Source of the DNA: Candidatus Nomurabacteria bacterium
GTDB lineage: Bacteria > Patescibacteriota > Minisyncoccia > Phycocordibacterales > UBA9973
NCBI GenBank assembly: GCA_026395995.1
Contig: JAPLXQ010000010.1
Span: forward strand, 146,400-210,399
Reading direction: 5' to 3'
Length of the DNA: 64,000 nt
Shown here: piece by piece, positions 2,769-39,392 of the stretch
Layout of the letters: each line of letters opens with the position of its first letter
Position numbering within the stretch: position 1 is the first letter of the stretch
The notes under the pieces: generated by a model
Seen by the model: the letters and a program-made list of their open reading frames with translations, nothing else
Databases searched by the model: none
What the model was told of the DNA's origin: nothing
Translations under genes and position numbers: made by a program

Positions 2769-5700
2769 ATGCAAAAATCAGTTGCACGACCAAAGAAGTA
2801 TTTCTCAAGGTACAAGAAGCCCTTGATAGAGTTTCCAAACTTAATTGAAACTCAAGTAAAAAGTTTCAAGTGGTTAGTCGAAAATGGAATTGGAGAAGTG
2901 TTCAAAGAGTTCTCTCCGATCAATGATTACTCTGGAAAAAAATTCCAATTAGAGTTCACATCTTTTACTCTCGGTGAACCAAAGTGCGACGAATATACAG
3001 CAAAGTTAAACAAGCTCTCATATGAAGGGCTTTTAAAAGTGCGCGTAAAATTGACAAACAAAGTTCTCGGTACTATTAAAGAACAAGAAATTTTCATGTC
3101 TGAATTCCCATTGATGACTGCACATGGAAGTTTTATTATCAACGGAGTAGAACGTGTCATCGTTCCACAGCTTGCTAGAAGTTTCGGAGTTTTCTTTACT
3201 GAATCTGAAAGTAAAGGTAAGAGATTTTTTGGTGCAAAAATAATTCCAGCTCGTGGAGTTTGGATTGAGATAGAATCAGAAGCTGATGGTGCTATTTATG
3301 TACGTATCGATAAAAAGAGAAAATTCCCAGCTACAGCTCTATTACGTGTCATGGGTTATCATACAGACGAAGAAATAATAAAAGCTTTTGCTGGTAATGA
3401 AATACATGAAGCTTCTATTGTTGCCTCTTTAGCTAAAGACACTACTAAAGTATTAGGGGAAGCCTTTGTAGACATCTACAAGCGTTTACGTGATGGTGAT
3501 ATGGCGACTGCTGACAATGCGAAAGAATTTATTACTTCAATTTTTACAGCTGAGAGATATGATCTTTCTCCTGTTGGACGTTTTCGTTTCAATGATCGTT
3601 TCGGAAAAGATATGGGCGACGAAGAAATGAAAAGAAGAATAATTTCTAAAGAAGATTTAGTTGTAATATTAAAAAATATTATAGATTTAAATAATACCGC
3701 TGATGCAAAAGCTGATGATATTGACCACTTAGGTCAACGTCGTGTACGTTTCGTCGGAGAAATGCTCCAACAAAAAATCCGTACAGGTATCATGCAAATC
3801 AAGAGAAATATTCAAGATAGAATGTCTACTATTGATGTAGATATGGCTATGCCTATTCAAATCATCAATCAACGACCTCTCCAAGCTCGTATTAAAGAAT
3901 TCTTTACTACAAACCAGCTTTCACAATTCATGTCTCAAGAAAACGTCTTGGCTGAAATAGAGCACTTACGTTTGCTTTCTGCTCTTGGCCCCGGTGGTCT
4001 TACACGTGAAAGAGCAGGTCTCGAAGTTCGTGACGTGCATCCATCTCACTATGGACGTATTTGTCCTATTCATACACCTGAAGGTCCAAACATTGGATTG
4101 ATTGTTCACCTTTCAATTTATTCTAAAATAAATGATTTTGGTATTATTGAAACTCCTTACGTGAAAGTTAAAAAAGGAAAAATTACTGGTGAAATTCAAT
4201 ACTTGAATGCTTTAGAAGAAGAGAAATACAATATTGCTCACGGTGGTGTTCCTTATACTGAAGAAGGAATGATTTCAGTAGAACAAGTAGAAGCTCGTGT
4301 CAAAACTCAACCTGGTATTATTCACCGCGATGAAATTGATTTTATCGACGTGGCTACAAACCAAGGTTTTTCTATTGCGACATCTATGATTCCTTTCTTG
4401 GAACATAACGATGCGAACCGTGCACTCATGGGAAGTAATATGCAGAAGCAAGCAGTGCCTTGTGTTAATCCAGAAGTTCCATTGGTTGGAACAGGCATGG
4501 AAGAATATGCTTCTAGAGATTCAGGAAGACTTGTCATTGCTGAAAATGATGGAGTTGTAAAATATGCTGATGGTAAAAAAATAATCATTACTGAAAAAGG
4601 TGATAAAGATAAAGTTTATACTTTAGTTAATTTCTTACGTAACAACAACTTTTCTATTTTTCATCAACGTCCAAATGTAAACGTCGGAGATAAAATTAAA
4701 AAAGGCGATGTTCTTGCTGATACTACTAGTACAGTAGATGGACAAATTGCTATTGGTCAAAATATTTTAATGGCTTTCATGTCATGGAATGGACTCAACT
4801 ATGAAGATGCGATTATTATTTCTGAAAGATTGGTGAAAAATAGTGTTTTCACTTCTGTTTATTTGGAAGAATTCATCTGTACTGTTCGTGATACAAAGCT
4901 TGGTCCCGAAATCACAACTCGTGATATTCCAAACGTTGGAGAATTGAAATTGAAAGATCTTGATGAAGACGGTATTGTCCGTGTCGGAGCTGAAGTTCGT
5001 GAAAACGATATTTTGGTTGGTAAAATTACTCCAAAAGGAGAGACAGAGCTTACACCAGAAGAAAGATTACTTCGTTCTATTTTCGCTGAAAAAGCTCGTG
5101 ACGTAAAAGATACATCAATGCGTATGGAACACGGAAAGCGTGGACGTATTATCGGTGTGAAAATTTTCTCACGTGAAATGGGCCACTCATTAGAATCTGG
5201 AATCATTAAGAAAATTGTTATTGAAGTTGCTCAAATTAGAAATATTTCTGTCGGAGACAAGCTTTCAGGACGTCATGGAAACAAAGGTGTTATTTCTACT
5301 GTTCTTCCAGAAGAAGATATGCCATACATGGCAGATGGTACTCCAATCGATATTATTTTGACACCACTCGGTGTGCCTTCTCGTATGAACTTGGGACAGA
5401 TTTTGGAAATTCACCTTGGTATGGCGGCAAACACACTCGGCTATCAAGCTATTGTTCCACCATTCCTTGGTGCAAAAAATGAAGAAATCAAAGAAGAATT
5501 AGTCAAAGCTGGATTCAATGAAAATGGAAAAATGAAACTTTTCGATGGACGAACTGGAGAAGCTTTTGAACAAGATATCGCTGTCGGTTATATGTATATG
5601 TTGAAACTTCACCACATGGTAGAAGACAAGATCCATATGCGTTCAATTGGTCCCTACAGTCTCATTACACAGCAACCACTCGGAGGTAAAGCTCAAGGTG

Positions 5701-12819: not shown

Positions 12820-13536
12820 ATGAAAAATGAAACAAAATCTGACAGACTGAGCTTTGCACAGCTGGGTGTCCTTGCAGGAATCATTATGGAATTCCTTGCA
12901 GTAATGTTCAATGCTCCACAGCTAAAATATTGGCTTGAGCATAAAACGGAGTTAAAGAAAAGGCTTCGTGAAGTTTTTAAAATTGTAGATGAGTATGTCG
13001 ACATTCGTATAGAATGGGCTACTTTCTACAAAAAGAATTTTGACTGGGAAGTAGATTTCAGTCATGTAATAATTCCAACAATGCCGACTATTGGTAAATG
13101 GAGATTATTATTTATTCCGAAAGGAATGAGACCACAGCTTGCTTTTGAAGTTTGTACAAAGCTTTTTAAAACAAGTAAGTATTGTGATAACTTGGATGAT
13201 GCGATTGGTAAAAACATTCGTACAACAGGTGAACATTATGCTGTGTGGGTTCGTGACGAAGTTGAACCAGATTCAGAAACATTGGGCAAATCAACTCGCC
13301 AAGCGGATCCTGATATGAAAGTTGGAATCACATTGCTTGAAGGAATTATTTTTGAAATTAAGTATTTTACTGAAACCGGTAAACATCTTAATATTAAAGG
13401 AGTTACTTTTTGTAGCGGTTCTCGCATTTCTGGTGGCAATGTTCCGAGCGTGAGTTGGAGCGATGGCAAGTTCGAGGTGTACTGGAACGACTTGGACAAT
13501 TCGGTTTCGTATTATGGTATCCGTTCAGCAGTTTAA
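12820..13536 (+). CDS. DGR variable target protein (238 aa). The C-terminal ~40 aa is encoded by the VR; hydrophobic N-terminal segment; no other recognisable domain
   Basis: VR lies in-frame in the last 40 codons. C-terminus CSGSRISGGNVPSVSWSDGKFEVYWNDLDNSVSYYGIRSAV. Variable codons correspond to AAY/GAY/AAG codons in the TR. Confidence 0.8.
   Translation: MKNETKSDRLSFAQLGVLAGIIMEFLAVMFNAPQLKYWLEHKTELKKRLREVFKIVDEYVDIRIEWATFYKKNFDWEVDFSHVIIPTMPTIGKWRLLFIPKGMRPQLAFEVCTKLFKTSKYCDNLDDAIGKNIRTTGEHYAVWVRDEVEPDSETLGKSTRQADPDMKVGITLLEGIIFEIKYFTETGKHLNIKGVTFCSGSRISGGNVPSVSWSDGKFEVYWNDLDNSVSYYGIRSAV
13415..13534 (+). repeat. DGR variable repeat (VR), 120 bp
   Basis: Direct repeat of 13797-13916 with 13 mismatches, all at TR adenines. 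The 3' end (ggtatccgttcag) is conserved and may serve as the homing-initiation sequence. Confidence 0.85.
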
Positions 13537-13564
13537 TCTTTTATTTTTTTAACTTTTAACCTTA

Positions 13565-13600
13565 ATCAGTGTTTGCTATGCAAACACTGATTTTTTTATG
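13565..13600 (+). terminator. hairpin plus T7 30 nt downstream of VR (terminator and/or DGR target-recognition cruciform)
   Basis: atcagtgtttgc-tatg-caaacactgat then ttttttt. Confidence 0.5.
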
Positions 13601-13796
13601 CTAAAATATACTCGGCTGTTAAATTGATTTGGCTTCGGCTAGATAACAATTTGCCATATAAAGAAACTGCCTGCAATTAATAAAGCATAGATAATTCAGT
13701 TTTGTATTGATGCACCACATTGCTCGTTGTGAAGCGAGATAACTCAGAAAATTTGGAAACAGATTTTCGGTGAAATGGAATATTTATTGCGGTAGA

Positions 13797-13916
13797 GCGG
13801 TTCTCGCAATTCTGATGGCAATGTTCCGAACGTGAATTGGAACGATGACAAGTTCAAGGTGAACTGGAACAACTTGGACAATTCGAATTCGAATTATGGT
13901 ATCCGTTCAGAAGTTT
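13797..13916 (+). repeat. DGR template repeat (TR), 120 bp, same orientation as VR
   Basis: About 35 A residues, of which 13 differ in the VR (to G x8, T x4, C x1). In the VR reading frame the TR carries many AAC/AAT codons. Confidence 0.85.
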
Positions 13917-13917
13917 C

Positions 13918-14262
13918 TCATAACAATCCGCTCTGTTTGGGCGGATTTTGTGTTTGAGTATATTTGAGCCAGCCATTTATCATCTTTGAAATTTCTTGAA
14001 GTTTCAATTCTATTTGTAAATATATAGTTTCGGTAATTATTTTTAATTCATATTCTGTGCGGATAAGTTGTTTCAATGTTTCTGTTTGTAGCCTTGCTTG
14101 TTTAAGTAGAATAATTTTATCTACCTTTGATTCAAGTGATGCACTAATGAGCAACGAAAAACTTTTTAAAAATTCTTTTTCAATATAGTTATGTAGTCCA
14201 AGTTTGTCACGTTTCGGTAATTTATTTCCAATTAAATAAATATAAGCGTATAATTTACGCAT
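13918..14262 (-). CDS. avd: Avd-like accessory variability determinant (basic four-helix-bundle / 23S rRNA IVS protein family)
   Basis: YAYIYLIGNKLPKRDKLGLHNYIEKE fits the KFPKxxxYxL motif of this family; ~114 aa and basic. The ORF is also open back to an upstream ATG at 14322, which would overlap the RT start; the start at 14262 is preferred. Confidence 0.7.
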   Translation of the reverse strand: MRKLYAYIYLIGNKLPKRDKLGLHNYIEKEFLKSFSLLISASLESKVDKIILLKQARLQTETLKQLIRTEYELKIITETIYLQIELKLQEISKMINGWLKYTQTQNPPKQSGLL

Positions 14263-14265
14263 CTT

Positions 14266-15393
14266 ATGGACAACTGGAATATCAAAGTCGTTGGGGGGGG
14301 TGCTAATCAAAGTCTCCTTCATAATATCGTAAGTTTACCAAATTTACTGCAAGCATGGAAGGAATTTAAAAGGTGTAAAAATTCCAAAAAAGACATTGCT
14401 GAATTTGAATTTAATTTAGAAAATAATTTATTTTCCTTGTACAGTAATTTAATAAATAAAACATACATACCAGACCCATACCAAGCATTCTTTGTTTATG
14501 ATCCAAAACGACGACATATACACAAAGCTACAGTCAAAGATAGAGTTTTACATCAAGCTATTTTTAAGATTTTATATCCAATATTTGATAAGCATTTTAT
14601 TTATGATTCTTATTCATCACGCAAAGGAAAGGGAACTCATAAGGCGTCACAACAGCTTTTTATAGTATTAAGGAAAGAGAGCAAAAACTGGCGAGTGCCA
14701 GTTTTTGCTCTTAAGTGTGACATTAGAAAATTTTTTGATTCTGTAGATCACAACATTTTATTTGAGTTAATAAAAAAGAAAATAACAGATGAAGAAACTT
14801 TAACTTTAATTAAACAAATTTTAGATAGCTTTGAAGTTAAAAATAAAATGTTAACAAACTCAGCGATAGCAGAAAGTGTTAACATTTCAAGACGAGGTTT
14901 ACCTCTTGGTAATGTAACGAGCCAGCTTTTTGCAAATATCTACTTAAATGAATTAGATCAATTCGTGAAACATAACTTGAAAGTAAAAAGTTATTTTAGA
15001 TATGCAGATGATTTTGTGTTGCTTTCTAGAGATAGAAAAATTTTAGAAAACTACATATTAGAAATTCAGGATTTTTTAGATAAAAATTTAAAATTACAAT
15101 TACACCCAAATAAAATTTCAATAAGAAAAGTAACACAAGGGATTGATTTTGTGGGATATGTAATTTTACCTGATACAGTGGTATTAAGAACTAAAACAAA
15201 AAAGAGAATTTTTAAAAAGTTAAAAACTGTAAAAGACAAATTAGTTAACAAAAAATCAACTAAAGAAAACTTTAATCAAACTAAAACTTCCTATTTAGGA
15301 ATTCTTACTCATTGTAAAGATAAGGAAATTAAAAGAGGGATAAACAGAATTTTATTGCAATGCTTTATCAATTTTGCCAGTGACCATCAATAG
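14266..15393 (+). CDS. DGR reverse transcriptase
   Basis: RT motifs: PKRRHIHKATVKDRVLHQAI (1/2), ALKCDIRKFFDSVDH (3), motif 4 GLPLGNVTSQLFANIYL with the DGR-specific [ILV]GxxxSQ signature, YADDFVLL (5). The N-terminal region aligns with the Bordetella phage bRT pattern (...YDPKRR.I.KA...DRV.HQAI...IFD..FIYDSY..RKGKGTH.A). G8 homopolymer at 14293-14300. Confidence 0.9.
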   Translation: MDNWNIKVVGGGANQSLLHNIVSLPNLLQAWKEFKRCKNSKKDIAEFEFNLENNLFSLYSNLINKTYIPDPYQAFFVYDPKRRHIHKATVKDRVLHQAIFKILYPIFDKHFIYDSYSSRKGKGTHKASQQLFIVLRKESKNWRVPVFALKCDIRKFFDSVDHNILFELIKKKITDEETLTLIKQILDSFEVKNKMLTNSAIAESVNISRRGLPLGNVTSQLFANIYLNELDQFVKHNLKVKSYFRYADDFVLLSRDRKILENYILEIQDFLDKNLKLQLHPNKISIRKVTQGIDFVGYVILPDTVVLRTKTKKRIFKKLKTVKDKLVNKKSTKENFNQTKTSYLGILTHCKDKEIKRGINRILLQCFINFASDHQ

Positions 15394-26901: not shown

Positions 26902-28212
26902 ATGAATTTTAAAATAGAAAAAAAGTTAGCAAATACTTTAGGCAGAGTTGGAATTTTATCAACTCCACACGGAGATATTTTAACTCCTGCTTTTGTGACT
27001 GTCGGTACGAAGGCGACCGTGAAATCTCTCACACCAGAAGCGGTGAGTGGTGCTGGTGCGCAAGTCGTCCTCGCGAATACTTACCATTTATTTTTACAAC
27101 CAGGGGATGAGGTTGTGGCAAAAGCTGGAGGCCTAGGCAAGTTTATGAATTGGAGTGGTCCTACGATGACAGACTCAGGAGGATTCCAAGTTTTTTCTCT
27201 CGGTGCTGCGTATGGAAAAGATATTTCAAAAGTAGTAAAAATTACTGATCCGTCGCTCATGATTCCTGAGCGTTTCGATGATAGTGATGCACCGCGCCTC
27301 GCGAAGATCGGCAATGATGGAGTGTCTTTCAAGTCGCATCTCGATGGTTCGATTCATTACATCACTCCAGAGAAATCAATCCAGATTCAGCACAACCTCG
27401 GTGCGGATATTATTTTTGCATTTGATGAATGCACTTCTCCGGCAGAGGAGATCAAATACCAAGAAGAAGCTCTCTCTCGCACTCATGCTTGGGCGAAGAG
27501 GAGTTTGGAAGAGCATATAAAATTGGAAGAGGCGAAGAATTTTCTTCCTCCCCTTCGCCAAGGGGAGGACCGAGGTGGGGTGTTGAATCAGCACCCCCTC
27601 CCAACCTCCCCCTTAGCAAAGGGGGAGGAGAAATTCCCCCAAGCCCTCTTCGGCATCGTCCAAGGCGGTCGCGAAGAAGATCTAAGAAAAAAATCCGCGC
27701 AAATTATTTCTGAAATGGAAGTGGACGGCAAGAAATTCGACGGCTTCGGTATTGGGGGAAGTTTTGCAAAAGAAGATATGGCGACAGCGGTAAAATGGTG
27801 CAATGAAATTTTGCCAGAAGAAAAACCTCGCCACCTCCTCGGCATCGGCGAGCCGGAAGATTTATTTATGGGTATTGAAAATGGTGTAGATCTTTTTGAC
27901 TGTGTCATCCCGACCCGCCTCGGCAGAAACGGCACTATCTATACAAAGACAGGGAAGATAAGTATTACAAATACAAAATTCCGTGAAGACTTTACACCAA
28001 TAGAAGCCGACTGTGAATGTTATACTTGTAAAAATTATACCAAAGCCTACATCGCACACCTTTTCCATGGCAAAGAAATGCTCGCGGGTACTTTGGCTTC
28101 TACTCACAACCTCCACTTCATCGTCTCCCTTGTCGCCAACATCCGCCAAAGTATTTTAGATGATAAATTTGAAGAATTTAAGGATGAATTTTTAAATATG
28201 TATAAAGCTTAA
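26902..28212 (+). CDS. tgt: queuine tRNA-ribosyltransferase, carrying an in-frame ~32-aa insertion encoded by a palindromic element
   Basis: TPAFVTVGTKATVK, LFGIVQGG, zinc site CxCxxC...H at the C-terminus. Insert LPPLRQGEDRGGVLNQHPLPTSPLAKGEEK. Confidence 0.9.
   Translation: MNFKIEKKLANTLGRVGILSTPHGDILTPAFVTVGTKATVKSLTPEAVSGAGAQVVLANTYHLFLQPGDEVVAKAGGLGKFMNWSGPTMTDSGGFQVFSLGAAYGKDISKVVKITDPSLMIPERFDDSDAPRLAKIGNDGVSFKSHLDGSIHYITPEKSIQIQHNLGADIIFAFDECTSPAEEIKYQEEALSRTHAWAKRSLEEHIKLEEAKNFLPPLRQGEDRGGVLNQHPLPTSPLAKGEEKFPQALFGIVQGGREEDLRKKSAQIISEMEVDGKKFDGFGIGGSFAKEDMATAVKWCNEILPEEKPRHLLGIGEPEDLFMGIENGVDLFDCVIPTRLGRNGTIYTKTGKISITNTKFREDFTPIEADCECYTCKNYTKAYIAHLFHGKEMLAGTLASTHNLHFIVSLVANIRQSILDDKFEEFKDEFLNMYKA
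27546..27630. repeat. GC-rich compound palindromic element, in-frame inside tgt
   Basis: cctcccc-ttcgccaa-ggggagg / ggggtgttgaatcagcacccc / ctccccc-ttagcaaa-gggggag; same architecture as the uvr copies. Confidence 0.7.
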
Positions 28213-28224
28213 TATAATAAATAT

Positions 28225-28839
28225 ATGGAAATTTTTTTAATTAAAGGTCTAATAATTGGTTTTTCTATAGCAGCTCCTGTCGGGCCTATTGGTATTTTGT
28301 GTATTCAGAGAACCATTAATTATGGAAGAAAATCAGGATTATTCACCGGTTTTGGTGCAGCAACAGCTGACGGTCTATATGGTGCTGTGGCTGCTTTTGG
28401 TTTGACAATTATTTCAAATTTTTTAGTCGGACAACAGTTTTGGTTTAGGTTAATCGGAGGTTTATTTCTGCTTTATTTAGGTATCAGAACTTTTGTGTCT
28501 AAACCAAAAGAAAAAACAAAGAAAGATAACCATAAAAGTTTATTTTCAGATTATTTTTCTACAATTTTTCTTACACTTACAAACCCAATGACAATTTTAT
28601 CTTTTGTTGCTATTTTTGCAGGGCTAGGACTCGGTAGCATAAAAGGAGATACATCATCAGCACTTTTTATGACAATAGGAGTATTTATTGGTTCAGCTAT
28701 TTGGTGGTTAATTTTGAGTGGAGGAGTTAGTCTTTTAAAAACAAAATTTAATACTTCTTCATTAAAAATTGTAAACAAAATTTCTGGAATAATTTTAGTG
28801 ACTTTTGCAATTTTATCTTTTTTAAGTATTTTTAAATAA
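28225..28839 (+). CDS. LysE/RhtB-family amino-acid exporter
   Basis: ~200 aa, 6 TM helices, N-terminal GxxxGFxxAxPxGP motif. Confidence 0.7.
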   Translation: MEIFLIKGLIIGFSIAAPVGPIGILCIQRTINYGRKSGLFTGFGAATADGLYGAVAAFGLTIISNFLVGQQFWFRLIGGLFLLYLGIRTFVSKPKEKTKKDNHKSLFSDYFSTIFLTLTNPMTILSFVAIFAGLGLGSIKGDTSSALFMTIGVFIGSAIWWLILSGGVSLLKTKFNTSSLKIVNKISGIILVTFAILSFLSIFK

Positions 28840-28960
28840 TTTTGTTACGAAAAAATCCTCACTTAACTCTTAAAATTATAGATGAGATATTACCAATGAT
28901 ATTTGACACTAAGTTAGTCTTGTGCTAATTTAAAGATAAATTACAGTTCATCGTATTTAT

Positions 28961-29111
28961 TCCGGATTAGCTCAGCTGGTTAGAGCGCCTGACTGGATAA
29001 GTTTTGTAGATTTAGTAAGTTAGTTCGAAATAATTTATTAAACTCTTTCTTGGTTTACCAAGGCAACCTTATTTTATCAGGAGGTCATGGGTTCAAGTCC
29101 TTTATCTGGAG
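28961..29111 (+). tRNA. tRNA gene interrupted by a ~77-84-nt AT-rich insertion in the anticodon loop. D-arm, variable loop and T-arm resemble tRNA-Ile
   Basis: Acceptor TCCGGAT/ATCTGGA, D-arm GCTCAGCTGGTTAGAGC, anticodon stem CCTGA...TCAGG separated by 84 nt, variable loop AGGTC, T-loop TTCAAGT. The isotype cannot be fixed by eye. Confidence 0.5.
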
Positions 29112-29133
29112 CGGAATATCAAATTTTATTAAG

Positions 29134-29168
29134 AGCACTAAACTTTTTATGTTTAGTGCTTCTTTTTT
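29134..29168 (+). terminator. rho-independent terminator after the tRNA
   Basis: agcactaaac-ttttta-tgtttagtgct then tctttttt. Confidence 0.5.
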
Positions 29169-29200
29169 GTCTTTTTGAGTTAGGACTAATATATAAATAA

Positions 29201-29231
29201 AAAAGCGTTTCAGAAATTTCTGAAACGCTTT
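29201..29231. terminator. perfect 13-bp-stem palindrome, bidirectional terminator
   Basis: aaaagcgtttcag-aaatt-tctgaaacgctttt; it terminates the minus-strand ORF that ends at 29252. Confidence 0.5.
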
Positions 29232-29251
29232 TACAACAAAAATTTGTTGTT

Positions 29252-29551
29252 TTAATTTTGTGGCACAGGCATTGGTACTGCTGAAGTAATAAAACGGTCA
29301 CTAACTTCTCCATTTTCGTGCGCACGACCAGTTTTTGCCTCAAAAGAATCTTTTAATGCTTGACCTAATCTTTTGTACAACTCTAGCTCTGTTTCGTTGT
29401 CGTCACTAGAGATTTCAATACAGTGAACCTCACAATGATTAAGTAGGCCTTCTTGCCCATACAGATCTACTTTTTCTGTAATTGAATTTTTGTAAAAGTC
29501 ATTTAGTTTCACTGTGTAATAGCCACATACTAAAAAATAGAATTTTTTCAT
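29252..29551 (-). CDS. hypothetical protein
   Basis: ORF track only. Confidence 0.3.
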   Translation of the reverse strand: MKKFYFLVCGYYTVKLNDFYKNSITEKVDLYGQEGLLNHCEVHCIEISSDDNETELELYKRLGQALKDSFEAKTGRAHENGEVSDRFITSAVPMPVPQN

Positions 29552-29676
29552 TTTTATTATTGATTTGTGAAAGAGCCATTTCTGGATTTCCGATTAATAC
29601 TGAATTTCTGAATTAGAATTATATTATATACCTTTTATTTAACTTTGTCAATTCTAATTAATTTTGCTATAGTGTA

Positions 29677-31884
29677 TTGGTGTTTAATAATAAATTCAAA
29701 ATCAAATCAGATTTCAAACCAGCAGGCGACCAGCCGAAGGCTATAAAGGCGCTTGTGGAAGGGTTGAAGAAGGGAATGAACAAGCAGACATTGCTCGGGG
29801 TTACGGGTAGTGGCAAGACTTTTACTGTGGCGAATGTGATCCAAAGTATACAGAAGCCGACGCTCATTATTGCGCACAATAAAACCCTCGCAGCTCAGCT
29901 CGCGCAGGAGTTCAAAGAATTCTTTCCGGAAAATGCGGTGCATTATTTCGTCTCCTATTACGACTACTACCAGCCGGAAGCTTACATGCCGACGACGGAT
30001 ACCTATATCGAAAAAGACGCGCAGATCAACAAAGAGATTGATCGTCTTCGTCATGCGTCTACGCAAGCTTTGCTCACGAGAAGTGATGTGATTATCGTAG
30101 CATCGGTGTCTTGTATTTACGGTCTCGGAAGTCCTGAAGAATACAAGGAGGAAAATTTGCATTTAGATGTCGGGATGAAAATGGATAGAAAAGAACTCGT
30201 GGAGAAATTGGTGAAAGTGCATTTCGAGAGGACGAATGCGGATTTGGAGCCGGGGAATTTCCGCGCGATAGGGAACATCATCGAAGTCATGCCGATATCA
30301 GAAACTTTTGTATATCGAATTGAGATTGGAACCCCCTCTCTAAAATCTTCAAATTTTGGAGAGGGGGCGGGGGGTGAGGGGAATTGTATTTCTAGTATCA
30401 CAAAAATAGATCCAGTGTCTTCTAAAATTCTTGCCGAAGAGCAAATGATTTTTATTTTTCCAGCGAAGCATTTCATTACGACGACAAAAGGCAGAGACAG
30501 TGCAATAAAATCTATTAAAAAAGAACTCGCAGATCAGCTCAAGAAATTCGACAAAGAAGGCAAGCTCCTCGAAGCGGAAAGATTAAAGAGGCGCACGACA
30601 TATGACCTCGCGATGATTCGCGAAGTCGGGTATTGTTCTGGAATTGAAAATTATTCTCGCCATTTGTCTGGTAAGGCTGTCGGTGAAGCACCGGAAACAT
30701 TGCTTTCATATTTCCCAAAGGATGCAAAAGGTAATCCTGATTTTTTGACTATCATCGACGAATCCCATGTCTCTATTCCGCAAATCGGGGGAATGTTTGC
30801 AGGGGATCAATCTAGAAAAAATACACTTGTCGAGCACGGTTTTCGTTTACCGAGTGCAAAAGATAACAGGCCATTAAAATTTCCAGAATTTTTAGAACGC
30901 GTCGGACAAATGATTTACACTTCTGCGACCCCGGCAGATTATGAACGAAAAGAAAGTAATCAGATAGTCGAGCAGGTTATCCGTCCGACAGGTTTGCTTG
31001 ATCCTGAAGTAGAAATAAGGCCAATTTTAGCTTCGAGTTCCTTTCCCCCTTCGCTAAGGGGGAAAATGAAAGGGGGTGTTGAATCAGAGCACCCCACCCC
31101 AACCCTCCCCTTGGCGAAGGGGAGGGAGAAATCTTACCCCGGTCAAATTCAAGATTTCATTTCCGAGGCAAAAAAGGAAATCAAAAATGGTCGCCGAGCG
31201 ATTGCGACGACACTTACGAAGAAAATGGCAGAAGATTTATCTGAATATTTAAAGAAAGAGGGAATCAAGGCAGAATATTTACATAGTGATATAAAAACGA
31301 TTGAGAGAATAAAAATTCTGACAGAATTTCGTCGGGGTGCTTTTGATATTATTGTCGGGGTGAACTTACTTCGTGAAGGTTTGGATTTACCAGAAGTTGG
31401 TTTGATAGGAATACTCGATGCCGACAAAGAAGGATTTTTGCGAAGTGAGACGGCACTTATTCAAACTATTGGCCGTGCGGCGAGAAATTCTGCTGGACGA
31501 GTTATTTTATATGCGGACAATATGACAGGTTCGATGGAGCGAGCATTACGAGAGACAAATCGTCGTCGTGCATTACAAATTGCTTATAATAAAAAAAATG
31601 GCATTACTCCTAAAACTATTTTGAAAGCTATCAAAGATATCACACAGGGGATGGATACACTCCATGACAAAGCTGTGCGTTCCGAGCTCGAACTCGATAC
31701 GAAACTTTTTGCAAAGAATCCAAATAAATTAATTAAAATAAAAGAACAAGCAATGAATGAAGCAGTAAAAATGCTCGACTTTGAGACTGCAGCAATCCTT
31801 CGCGATGAGATTAAAATCTTGAAATCTCGACCAGTGCCGGTAGTAGAACCTAAAGGTATTCCTAGGGTAAAGAAGACAAAGTAG
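29677..31884 (+). CDS. uvrB: excinuclease ABC subunit B, with two in-frame palindromic-element insertions
   Basis: GVTGSGKTFT Walker A, DESHVSIPQ, helicase motifs, C-terminal UVR domain (AAILRDEIKILK). Inserts TPSLKSSNFGEGAGGEGNC and SSSFPPSLRGKMKGGVESEHPTPTLPLAKGREKSYP. Confidence 0.92.
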   Translation: MVFNNKFKIKSDFKPAGDQPKAIKALVEGLKKGMNKQTLLGVTGSGKTFTVANVIQSIQKPTLIIAHNKTLAAQLAQEFKEFFPENAVHYFVSYYDYYQPEAYMPTTDTYIEKDAQINKEIDRLRHASTQALLTRSDVIIVASVSCIYGLGSPEEYKEENLHLDVGMKMDRKELVEKLVKVHFERTNADLEPGNFRAIGNIIEVMPISETFVYRIEIGTPSLKSSNFGEGAGGEGNCISSITKIDPVSSKILAEEQMIFIFPAKHFITTTKGRDSAIKSIKKELADQLKKFDKEGKLLEAERLKRRTTYDLAMIREVGYCSGIENYSRHLSGKAVGEAPETLLSYFPKDAKGNPDFLTIIDESHVSIPQIGGMFAGDQSRKNTLVEHGFRLPSAKDNRPLKFPEFLERVGQMIYTSATPADYERKESNQIVEQVIRPTGLLDPEVEIRPILASSSFPPSLRGKMKGGVESEHPTPTLPLAKGREKSYPGQIQDFISEAKKEIKNGRRAIATTLTKKMAEDLSEYLKKEGIKAEYLHSDIKTIERIKILTEFRRGAFDIIVGVNLLREGLDLPEVGLIGILDADKEGFLRSETALIQTIGRAARNSAGRVILYADNMTGSMERALRETNRRRALQIAYNKKNGITPKTILKAIKDITQGMDTLHDKAVRSELELDTKLFAKNPNKLIKIKEQAMNEAVKMLDFETAAILRDEIKILKSRPVPVVEPKGIPRVKKTK
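30331..30381. repeat. GC-rich palindromic element (variant family) in-frame in uvrB
   Basis: ccccctctc-taaaatcttcaaattttg-gagaggggg followed by cggggggtgagggg. Confidence 0.55.
31039..31127. repeat. GC-rich compound palindromic element in-frame in uvrB
   Basis: tccccc-ttcgctaa-ggggga / gggggtgttgaatcagagcacccc / ctcccc-ttggcgaa-ggggag; near-identical to the 33506 and 37543 copies. Confidence 0.75.
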
Positions 31885-35538: not shown

Positions 35539-36084
35539 TTGGTGATAGCATACATGGCTTTTGTTTGTTATAATAAAAACATGAAAAAAGAAATTAAAAA
35601 TGGAATTCGTGGCCAGATCTTTGAGCAACTTTCAAAATCACAATTTAAATATAAAGGTGTACCTGTAAATTTCTTTGGTTTACCAACTTTTTGTTCTTCA
35701 AAACCTCGCACACTTGTCTCTAATGAACTTTCAAGAATGAAAAGATTGGGTTTAATTGAGAAGAACGGGGAATTTTTACAAATTACAAATAAAGGCAAGG
35801 ATTACATAAAACGTCGCCAAGAAAGACTTTCTGTTTTTTATTTTACTTTTCAAAAATCTGCACCTAAAAATCTAATAGTCATGTTTGATATTCCAGAAGG
35901 TAAAAAAGCAGAAAGGGAATGGTTTAGATTTCATTTAAGAAGGTTTGACTATATTATGGTTCAAAGGTCGGTATGGGTCGGTCCATCACCTTTACCAAAA
36001 GATTTTCTAAAATATATAGAAGAAATTAATTTAAAGGATTGTATAAAAACTTTTAAACTAGCGAAAGGATATAAACCTCAATAG
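35539..36084 (+). CDS. PaaX-like regulator: winged-helix N-terminus plus Cas2-like (PaaX_C-like) C-terminal domain
   Basis: wHTH-like LSRMKRLGLIEKNGEFLQIT. C-terminus NLIVMFDIPEGKKAEREWFRFHLRRFDYIMVQRSVWVG has the Cas2/PaaX_C pattern. The true start may be the internal Met at 35581. Confidence 0.45.
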   Translation: MVIAYMAFVCYNKNMKKEIKNGIRGQIFEQLSKSQFKYKGVPVNFFGLPTFCSSKPRTLVSNELSRMKRLGLIEKNGEFLQITNKGKDYIKRRQERLSVFYFTFQKSAPKNLIVMFDIPEGKKAEREWFRFHLRRFDYIMVQRSVWVGPSPLPKDFLKYIEEINLKDCIKTFKLAKGYKPQ

Positions 36085-39306: not shown

Positions 39307-39378
39307 TCGGGAGTAGCTCAGCGGTAGAGCGGTCGCCTGTTAAGCGATTGGTCGTAGGTTCGATCCCTACCTCCCGAG
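39307..39378 (+). tRNA. tRNA-Asn (anticodon GUU)
   Basis: Manual fold: acceptor TCGGGAG/CTCCCGA, D-arm GCTCAGCGGTAGAGC, anticodon loop CTGTTAA, T-loop TTCGATC. Confidence 0.9.
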
Positions 39379-39392
39379 CCTGTTAAAATCTT

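Follow-up and report, generated by a model that had tools for sequence, protein, structure and literature searches.

Two kinds of interrupted tRNA gene described to date come closest to the one reported here. Patescibacteria carry group I introns in their tRNA genes, of which 22 have been published (PMC13011429). They are 184 to 606 nt long, have a P3-P9 core that is recognized by RF00028 or by a custom model, and self-splice in vitro. Those found in tRNA-Asn genes occupy site 35/36, with a U at position -1 and a terminal G, in the pattern CTGT/...g/TAA (slashes mark junctions). The second kind comes from the Lak megaphages, whose tRNAs contain "enigmatic" introns of 79 to 114 nt (Devoto et al. 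2019, PMC6784885, Table S6). Here, we analyze a tRNA gene at positions 28961 to 29111 on the plus strand of a 64,000-nt stretch of a Candidatus Nomurabacteria metagenome-assembled genome (MAG) (contig JAPLXQ010000010.1), referred to below as the window. The anticodon loop of this gene is split by a 77-nt AT-rich insert, for which the short Lak introns are the nearest precedent. Our best explanation, to which we give a probability of about 0.5, is that the gene is a recently disrupted, redundant copy of tRNA-Asn that is now either a pseudogene or a non-decoding tRNA-derived RNA.

A complete tRNA body surrounds a 77-nt insert

The Rfam tRNA model RF00005 matches 28961-29111(+) with 45.8 bits, compared with a gathering score of 29 (E = 1.4e-6 in the 64-kb window), and the alignment covers model positions 1 to 71, interrupted in the anticodon loop by an 81-nt insertion. 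The cloverleaf and tertiary core thus score above the gathering threshold, which places the sequence among the tRNAs. When introns were allowed, ARAGORN called a tRNA-Asn(gtt) with a 77-nt intron at 28996-29072, whereas under default settings it found three tRNAs in the window and 28961-29111 was not among them. Both Rfam and the intron mode of ARAGORN therefore detect the gene that the original prediction had placed at exactly these coordinates, with an anticodon-loop insert of 77 to 84 nt. In standard numbering, the insert lies between G34 and U35; the 35-36 reported by ARAGORN is in gene coordinates, and the difference arises from the 9-nt D-loop.

The 5' exon-like half (28961-28995, plus strand) contains the 5' strand of the acceptor stem, the D-arm, the CCTGA strand of the anticodon stem, and then C32, U33, and G34. 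It is followed by the insert (28996-29072, plus strand), which has a GC content of 27% and is present in a single copy in the window. The 3' exon-like half (29073-29111, plus strand) resumes with U35, U36, U37, and A38 and continues through TCAGG, AGGTC, the T-arm ATGGG/TTCAAGT/CCTTT, the acceptor 3' strand, and G73. By direct reading, TCCGGAT (28961-28967) and ATCTGGA (29104-29110) form a perfect 7-bp acceptor stem next to a discriminator G at 29111, and the D-arm is GCTC/AGCTGGTTA/GAGC. The anticodon stem pairs CCTGA (28988-28992) with TCAGG (29077-29081) over 5 bp, with its halves 84 nt apart. The variable loop AGGTC occupies 29082-29086, and the T-loop TTCAAGT occupies 29092-29098. The arms had been described as clean, and this holds for the acceptor stem, D-arm, variable loop, and T-loop but not for the T-stem, in which ATGGG and CCTTT form one U.U and one G.U pair. 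In total, the tRNA body has 20 stem pairs (18 Watson-Crick and 2 G.U) and one mismatch. CCA is not encoded at the 3' end.

Because the sequence comes from a MAG, it could in principle be an assembly or binning artifact that joined two tRNA halves. This explanation is hardly credible. A 1,079-nt Logan contig (L001; run SRR20698644 from Lac Pavin), which was assembled independently, is 100% identical over the upstream LysE-family gene, the whole element, and the start of the downstream gene orf99, indicating that the interrupted tRNA is not an assembly chimera. In addition, the two halves form the perfect acceptor stem and the 5-bp anticodon stem.

The interrupted gene is probably a redundant tRNA-Asn

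U1-A72 and G73 can be read from the sequence, as can a G34 before the insert and UU after it. The acceptor ends, TCCGG...CUGGAG, recur in the other tRNA-Asn of the window and in tRNA-Asn genes published from Patescibacteria. The U1-A72 pair, the discriminator G73, and an anticodon GUU point to an Asn isotype, although the assignment is indirect since the anticodon itself is split. The arms had originally been judged to resemble tRNA-Ile most closely, a judgment that these features overturn. The apparent likeness to tRNA-Ile is due to a generic D-arm that is shared, and the phage and plasmid BLAST matches to tRNA-Ile consist of this D-arm together with a gapped alignment of CTGGATAAG to CTGATAAG.

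A viral contig (L084; IMGVR_UViG_3300014039_000211) encodes an ordinary tRNA-Asn that has the same D-arm and anticodon stem and a canonical loop (GCGCCTGA-CTGTTAA-TCAGGA). Compared with this form, the element differs by the insert after G34 and by a change of A37 to U, and its ancestral loop was probably of the same type, CCTGA-CTGTTAA-TCAGG. An intact, intronless tRNA-Asn(GUU) lies 10 kb from the interrupted copy in the same window (39307-39380, plus strand). It is called by ARAGORN, matches RF00005 with 70.6 bits, has the canonical loop CTGTTAA, and is presumed to be the working copy; the original prediction had proposed looking for just such an intact duplicate of the same isotype. Since the exons of the interrupted gene are only 68% identical to this resident tRNA-Asn, the interrupted gene is not a recent local duplicate. 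The redundant copy was probably acquired horizontally.

All eight ways of restoring a 7-nt loop by excision were enumerated, with k bases of CUGGAUA joined to 7-k bases of UAUUUUA. The resulting loops are CUGGAUA (k = 5, 6, or 7), CUGGUUA, CUGUUUA, CUUUUUA, CAUUUUA, and UAUUUUA. Position 37 is a U in every one of the eight registers and never a purine. tRNAs that decode ANN codons carry A37, and the register that yields the Asn anticodon, CUG/UUUA, is without it. Thus, neither the gene as it stands nor any excision product has a 7-nt loop that combines U33 with a purine 37. Since no splicing signal is recognizable and U37 remains after any excision, the interrupted gene is probably not convertible to a decoding tRNA. 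A tRNA pseudogene is marked by an intact gene of the same isotype, here 39307-39380, and by a lesion incompatible with decoding, and both are found in the window.

These data are best explained by a pseudogene disrupted by a small insertion, which the original prediction had listed among its alternatives. A 77-nt AT-rich, hairpin-forming sequence would have entered between G34 and U35 of an accessory tRNA-Asn(GUU), splitting its anticodon loop. Transcription probably still starts at the gene's own promoter and stops at its own terminator, yielding an RNA that probably folds as an ordinary tRNA body with a Y-shaped extension of the anticodon arm. The ends of this transcript can probably be matured by RNase P and 3'-end enzymes, but it would be neither spliced nor used in decoding. 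AAY codons would be read by the intact tRNA-Asn.

The insert lacks the hallmarks of described introns

We searched 28800-29300 on both strands against Rfam with permissive filters and a threshold of E<=10. The only credible match was tRNA, and there was no group I or group II intron, ribozyme, or riboswitch, including the preQ1 riboswitch, which was of interest with tgt adjoining. The only other overlapping match, ODC_IRES (16.1 bits, E = 6.8), is noise. The insert had been considered far too short for a group I or group II intron; this stands, and the hallmarks of both classes are also missing. A group I intron is ruled out by the lack of a match to RF00028, a G at position -1, a U as the last base of the insert, and the length of 77 nt. 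A remnant of a group I intron at site 35/36 is likewise ruled out, since the junctions CTG/GAUAAG...CCUUAU/UUUA are unlike the CTGT/...g/TAA pattern. Group II introns are recognized by a 5' GUGYG, by domain V, and by a 3' AY with the bulged A of domain VI. The insert has no match to RF00029 and starts with GAUAAG, which excludes this class. Small self-cleaving ribozymes (hammerhead, twister, twister-sister, pistol, hatchet, HDV-like, and hairpin) gave no Rfam match, and a CUGANGA...GAAA core was not seen on inspection.

The original prediction had also noted a resemblance to archaeal and eukaryal tRNA introns. The resemblance holds for size but does not extend to the bulge-helix-bulge (BHB) motif, in which a 4-bp helix at the splice sites separates two 3-nt bulges located on opposite strands. 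There is no BHB here because the candidate junctions are 1 bp apart in a continuous 7-bp helix beside a symmetric 2x2 loop (CU/UA), and hand threading of alternative registers gave 5- to 6-nt bulges at best. No splicing endonuclease (EndA/TSEN), RtcB, or Rnl-type ligase is encoded among the 60 open reading frames (ORFs) of the window. A tRNA nested within the insert, as in Lak tRNA-Thr, was rejected because neither ARAGORN (-t, -mt, and -mtmam) nor Rfam sees one. The locus is also not a genomic-island att site, since the 3' end of the tRNA is not repeated and there are no flanking direct repeats.

The insert is predicted to extend the anticodon stem as a Y

In the minimum-free-energy (MFE) fold computed with RNAfold, the insert forms a Y-shaped prolongation of the anticodon stem, and it does so on the sense strand only. 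Proceeding outward from the anticodon stem, the fold has a 2x2 internal loop (C32 U33 / U37 A38), helix B, helix C, and a three-way junction with hairpins D and E. Helix B pairs 28995-29001 with 29068-29074 (7 bp, including G34.U36 and G.U35), and helix C pairs 29004-29007 with 29063-29066 (4 bp). Both are present in the MFE and centroid structures, and together these closing helices span 28995-29074. Hairpin D (29008-29046) has an AU-rich stem of 15 bp, which contains two G.U pairs and a single bulged C and is capped by the 8-nt loop GUUCGAAA at 29023-29030. Hairpin E (29049-29062), CUUGG-UUUA-CCAAG, has 5 bp and abuts the 3' strand of helix C with zero spacer. The helices named in the original prediction, ATAAG/CTTAT and the CTTGG/CCAAG hairpin with its TTTA loop, are both part of this fold.

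The sense fold has a free energy of -25.5 kcal/mol and a z-score of -3.9 relative to dinucleotide shuffles, and its 36 pairs include five G.U and no A.C mismatches. The antisense strand folds at -15.2 kcal/mol (z about -2), and the stem of hairpin D is absent from it. A structure this strong (z about -4) and strand specific, with five G.U pairs and no A.C, would suit an unspliced tRNA-like noncoding RNA (ncRNA), in which the tRNA body is a scaffold for processing and stability (RNase P, 3' trimming, and CCA addition) and the Y-shaped arm is the functional part, much like the tRNA-like domain of transfer-messenger RNA or a natural "tRNA scaffold." The intact tRNA core and expression signals also fit such an RNA, as does the loop GUUCGAAA, which appears to resemble a T-loop. 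However, no homologue was found and hence no covariation, no Rfam family other than tRNA matches, the GC content of the insert (27%) is that of the surrounding intergenic DNA (25%), the locus lies in a variable islet absent from close relatives, and no partner gene can be recognized, since orf99 has no Pfam, PHROGs, or PADLOC match. On balance, we regard a functional ncRNA of this kind as rather unlikely.

The same geometry bears on where the insert came from. Its hairpins start 12 nt from the left end and stop 10 nt short of the right end, they are strand specific, and no target site was duplicated, all of which could reflect a miniature nonautonomous mobile element such as a single-stranded DNA remnant of the IS200/IS605 type, with subterminal hairpins. 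Such an origin would be compatible with a pseudogene, and the arrangement presumably recalls the ends of IS608. Miniature elements are defined by multiple copies and a cognate transposase, and the insert occurs once in the window and approximately 1 Mb of related loci, without flanking repeats. No transposase domain, and specifically no Y1 transposase or TnpB, is encoded in the window. A mobile-element origin is therefore improbable.

Alternatively, the insert could be a true, if short, tRNA intron that is excised by a pathway not yet described. For example, the Y-shaped module could be released by an RNase P- or RNase Z-like enzyme or another structure-specific nuclease, followed by RNA ligation, as may occur in the Lak tRNAs. 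The position in the anticodon loop, the intact tRNA body with its own promoter-like site and terminator, and the sense-strand-specific structure of the insert would all be expected of an intron. Hairpin E abuts the closing helix as a T-arm abuts an acceptor stem, and there is precedent both in the unexplained short AT-rich inserts of phage tRNA anticodon loops (PMC6784885) and in the viral tRNA-Gln of L084, which harbors a mini tRNA-like module. These points are opposed by the U37 left in every excision register, the lack of any BHB, ribozyme, or group I/II signature, the failure of ARAGORN (-t and -mt) and Rfam to see the insert as tRNA-like, and the lack of a ligase or endonuclease gene in the window. 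The insert is also a singleton with no conservation, and splicing would be unnecessary given the intact tRNA-Asn gene. We therefore consider a spliced intron unlikely.

Expression signals and an undecayed body argue for caution

A promoter-like site was read by eye at 28903-28931 (plus strand), with TTGACA at 28903-28908, a 17-nt spacer, and TGc-TAATTT, in which the -10 element occupies 28926-28931. The site sits 29 nt 5' of the tRNA start and is not listed by a consensus scanner because its -10 element has just 3 of the 6 consensus bases. Promoter-like sites with a comparable layout precede the three other tRNA genes of the window. Past the 3' end of the tRNA by 22 nt, an intrinsic-terminator-like hairpin of 11 bp is followed by CTTTTTTG (29133-29169, plus strand). 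Two of the window's three ordinary tRNA genes (Ala and Asn) also have a downstream terminator hairpin.

Several observations weigh against a simple disrupted gene. The stem quality of the interrupted tRNA is within the spread of approximately 60 tRNAs called in the window and in the fetched loci, so decayed stems were rejected as evidence for a pseudogene. The tertiary-core nucleotides U8, A14, G18G19, C48, T54-T55-C56, and A58 are all kept. As judged from its sequence, the tRNA body is not decayed, and the promoter-like site and terminator likewise appear to be intact. The predicted fold, placed exactly in the anticodon loop, coaxial with the anticodon stem, and specific to one strand, is also what would be expected of a functional RNA domain. 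Finally, no homologue was found against which conservation, covariation, or decay of the element could be gauged.

The element is a singleton in a variable islet between tgt and uvrB

The gene order around the element is class II aminoacyl-tRNA synthetase, mreB, mreC, tgt (26902-28212), LysE (28225-28839), the element, orf99 (29252-29551, minus strand), uvrB, and uvrA. The tgt product is most similar, at no more than 89% amino acid identity, to proteins from MAGs that bear the names Candidatus Nomurabacteria, Paceibacterota, or Patescibacteria. LysE corresponds to NCBI MCX6755423.1, encoded on a 287-kb contig of a Candidatus Nomurabacteria MAG, and orf99 is NT068_02700 of the same MAG. No homologue of orf99 was found among 5.8 billion proteins, and orf99 is known only from its source MAG. 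It also has a perfect sigma-70 consensus promoter (12/12; 29623-29651, minus strand) and a terminator that is a perfect 14-bp palindrome (29201-29232).

The LysE-family gene, the interrupted tRNA, and orf99 form a low-GC islet (28225-29551) with no counterpart in the tgt-uvrB interval of L002, the closest relative, or of other relatives. GC contents are 30% for LysE, 35% for orf99, and 25% for the spacers, compared with 44% for tgt and 42% for uvrB. In L002, similarity ends at the 3' end of tgt and restarts just 5' of uvrB, with a different small gene between. Comparison of gene order and of the spacing between LysE and DUF1653 with strain ERZ1426853, whose LysE is 97% identical, shows the order tgt, two further genes, LysE, and DUF1653, with the start of DUF1653 18 nt past LysE, in the place occupied here by the element. 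The low GC content, the ORFan, and the absence from relatives therefore place the element in a small, strain-specific islet within a recombination hot spot. The islet was probably acquired recently, and its low GC content and ORFan are consistent with dispensable DNA.

More broadly, a comparison of window positions 28213-29676 with L002 7261-7596, L003, L004, L009, L011, and L012 shows that genes turn over at a hot spot between tgt and uvrB in Nomurabacteria; the contents of this interval vary by genome among DUF1653, LysE, cyclase, epimerase-like, and ORFan genes.

Relatives of the element were sought from several directions. In 80 syntenic tgt loci from related genomes, neither the element nor LysE lies between tgt and uvrB, and ARAGORN in intron mode found no other interrupted tRNA in approximately 0.86 Mb of relatives. 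The 20-mer GGTTAGAGCGCCTGACTGGA, which covers the D-stem, the anticodon stem, and the start of the insert, gave only two chance matches in JGI metagenomes, both outside tRNA genes. Five scans of viral sequences with exon, gapped, and insert patterns returned ordinary tRNAs or nothing, and BLAST against phages and plasmids returned no homologue, the only matches being to the generic D-arm of tRNA-Ile, -Val, and -Thr. Look-ups guided by LysE (a homologue search and six informative contigs) yielded relatives 76 to 97% identical, with no tRNA directly 3' of LysE; one contig (L093) ends at LysE. The relatives at 76 to 81% identity are in unrelated contexts, and two of them (L087 and L088) have a normal tRNA cluster upstream. 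A look-up guided by orf99 found no second genome with this gene. Among the sequences searched, the element is thus a singleton. A 96-nt tRNA-Thr(ggt) called by ARAGORN on L064 proved to be a false positive.

Some other features of the window are recorded here. The tgt product (436 amino acids) matches the Pfam TGT model in two stretches, the first from residue 107, and UvrB (29677-31884) has 735 amino acids from a TTG start and is longer than usual; both proteins may contain lineage-specific insertions or extensions. Directly 3' of uvrA, 35554-36084 encodes a small protein with a PaaX central (Cas2-like) domain. A complete diversity-generating retroelement occupies 12820-15393, with a target gene (12820-13536), a variable repeat (VR; 13414-13534), a template repeat (TR; 13796-13916), and genes for a bAvd-like protein (13918-14322) and a reverse transcriptase (14266-15393). 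The TR and VR differ at 13 positions, each of which is an adenine in the template.

Comparison with known systems

The group I introns of Patescibacteria occur in the same phylum as this insert, in the same isotype (Asn GUU), and at a site one nucleotide away, and default tRNA finders miss both. In contrast, the insert described here has 77 nt, no core, a G at position -1, a U as its last base, and site 34/35. Archaeal and eukaryal introns that are spliced by proteins (EndA/TSEN with RtcB/Trl1) have a similar size range and are also found in the anticodon loop, whereas this insert has neither a BHB nor a relaxed BHB, lies at 34/35 instead of 37/38, and is in a bacterial host.

The Lak inserts are the closest match. 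Like the present insert, they are short (79 to 114 nt compared with 77), AT-rich, situated in the anticodon loop of an otherwise normal bacterial-type tRNA, and without an Rfam match; the splicing mechanism of neither is known, and both fold with a closing helix that encloses hairpins. Folds of four published Lak introns have a 5' hairpin, an A-rich linker, and a closing helix of 8 to 9 bp enclosing hairpins. By our own reading, three of the four (Tyr, Phe, and Gly) contain a canonical T-arm of the GGTTCGAWTCC type, and RNAfold gives a separate T-arm hairpin only for Gly and Thr. This suggests that the Lak tRNA introns are nested tRNA-like modules rather than arbitrary inserts. A related arrangement is found on L084, where ARAGORN calls a tRNA-Gln(ttg) with a 61-nt "intron" at 3660-3797 (minus strand). 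This intron is in turn matched by RF00005 (36.7 bits over 3704-3761) as a tRNA-like RNA that lacks an anticodon arm; its acceptor contains a pair of the G3.U70 type, and A73 and CCA are encoded. L084, one of three viral contigs fetched, thus appears to carry a mini-tRNA nested in the anticodon loop of a tRNA-Gln. The same contig encodes a tRNA called as Pyl(cta), a possible amber suppressor.

The insert in the tRNA-Asn has its size, AT-richness, location, and Y shape in common with the Lak and L084 inserts. It differs from the Lak inserts in lacking a tRNA-like module; instead of a GGTTCGAWTCC T-arm with an acceptor-like helix, accompanied by a 5' hairpin, it has only the GUUCGAAA loop on a 15-bp hairpin. 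The Lak inserts are conserved, often identically, across phage genomes, whereas this one is a singleton in a bacterial chromosome. The boundaries of the Lak Tyr insert can be set so as to give A37 (in our own reading, for Tyr only), while a purine 37 cannot be restored here.

If the insert were spliced, it would be the first short tRNA intron of cellular bacteria that is neither group I nor group II, and it would both connect with the unexplained megaphage inserts and indicate an unknown bacterial splicing pathway. A broader and distinctly unlikely idea is that Y-shaped or tRNA-like modules in tRNA anticodon loops, as in this tRNA-Asn, the Lak tRNAs, and the tRNA-Gln of L084, make up an overlooked class of bacterial and phage introns that are cut by structure-specific host nucleases, possibly RNase P- or RNase Z-like, and then joined by an RNA ligase. 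If true, this class of nested modules would represent a third, protein-dependent route of tRNA splicing in the bacterial world.

The present evidence does not favor a new splicing system, and a disabled spare tRNA gene in variable DNA is the simplest account. In that case, the locus matters mainly for annotation: default tRNA finders miss the gene, and intron-tolerant ones call a working tRNA-Asn with an intron, so that either misdescribes the tRNA complement of a reduced Patescibacteria genome. Tested against tRNA pseudogenes and disrupted accessory copies, the locus shows the same features, namely, a redundant isotype, a setting of low-GC DNA that is strain specific and adjoins an ORFan, and damage to the one element that decoding requires. 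It differs from the usual tRNA pseudogenes in that no decay is seen outside the lesion, either in the gene or in its expression signals, and in that the lesion is a structured insert rather than point mutations or a truncation.

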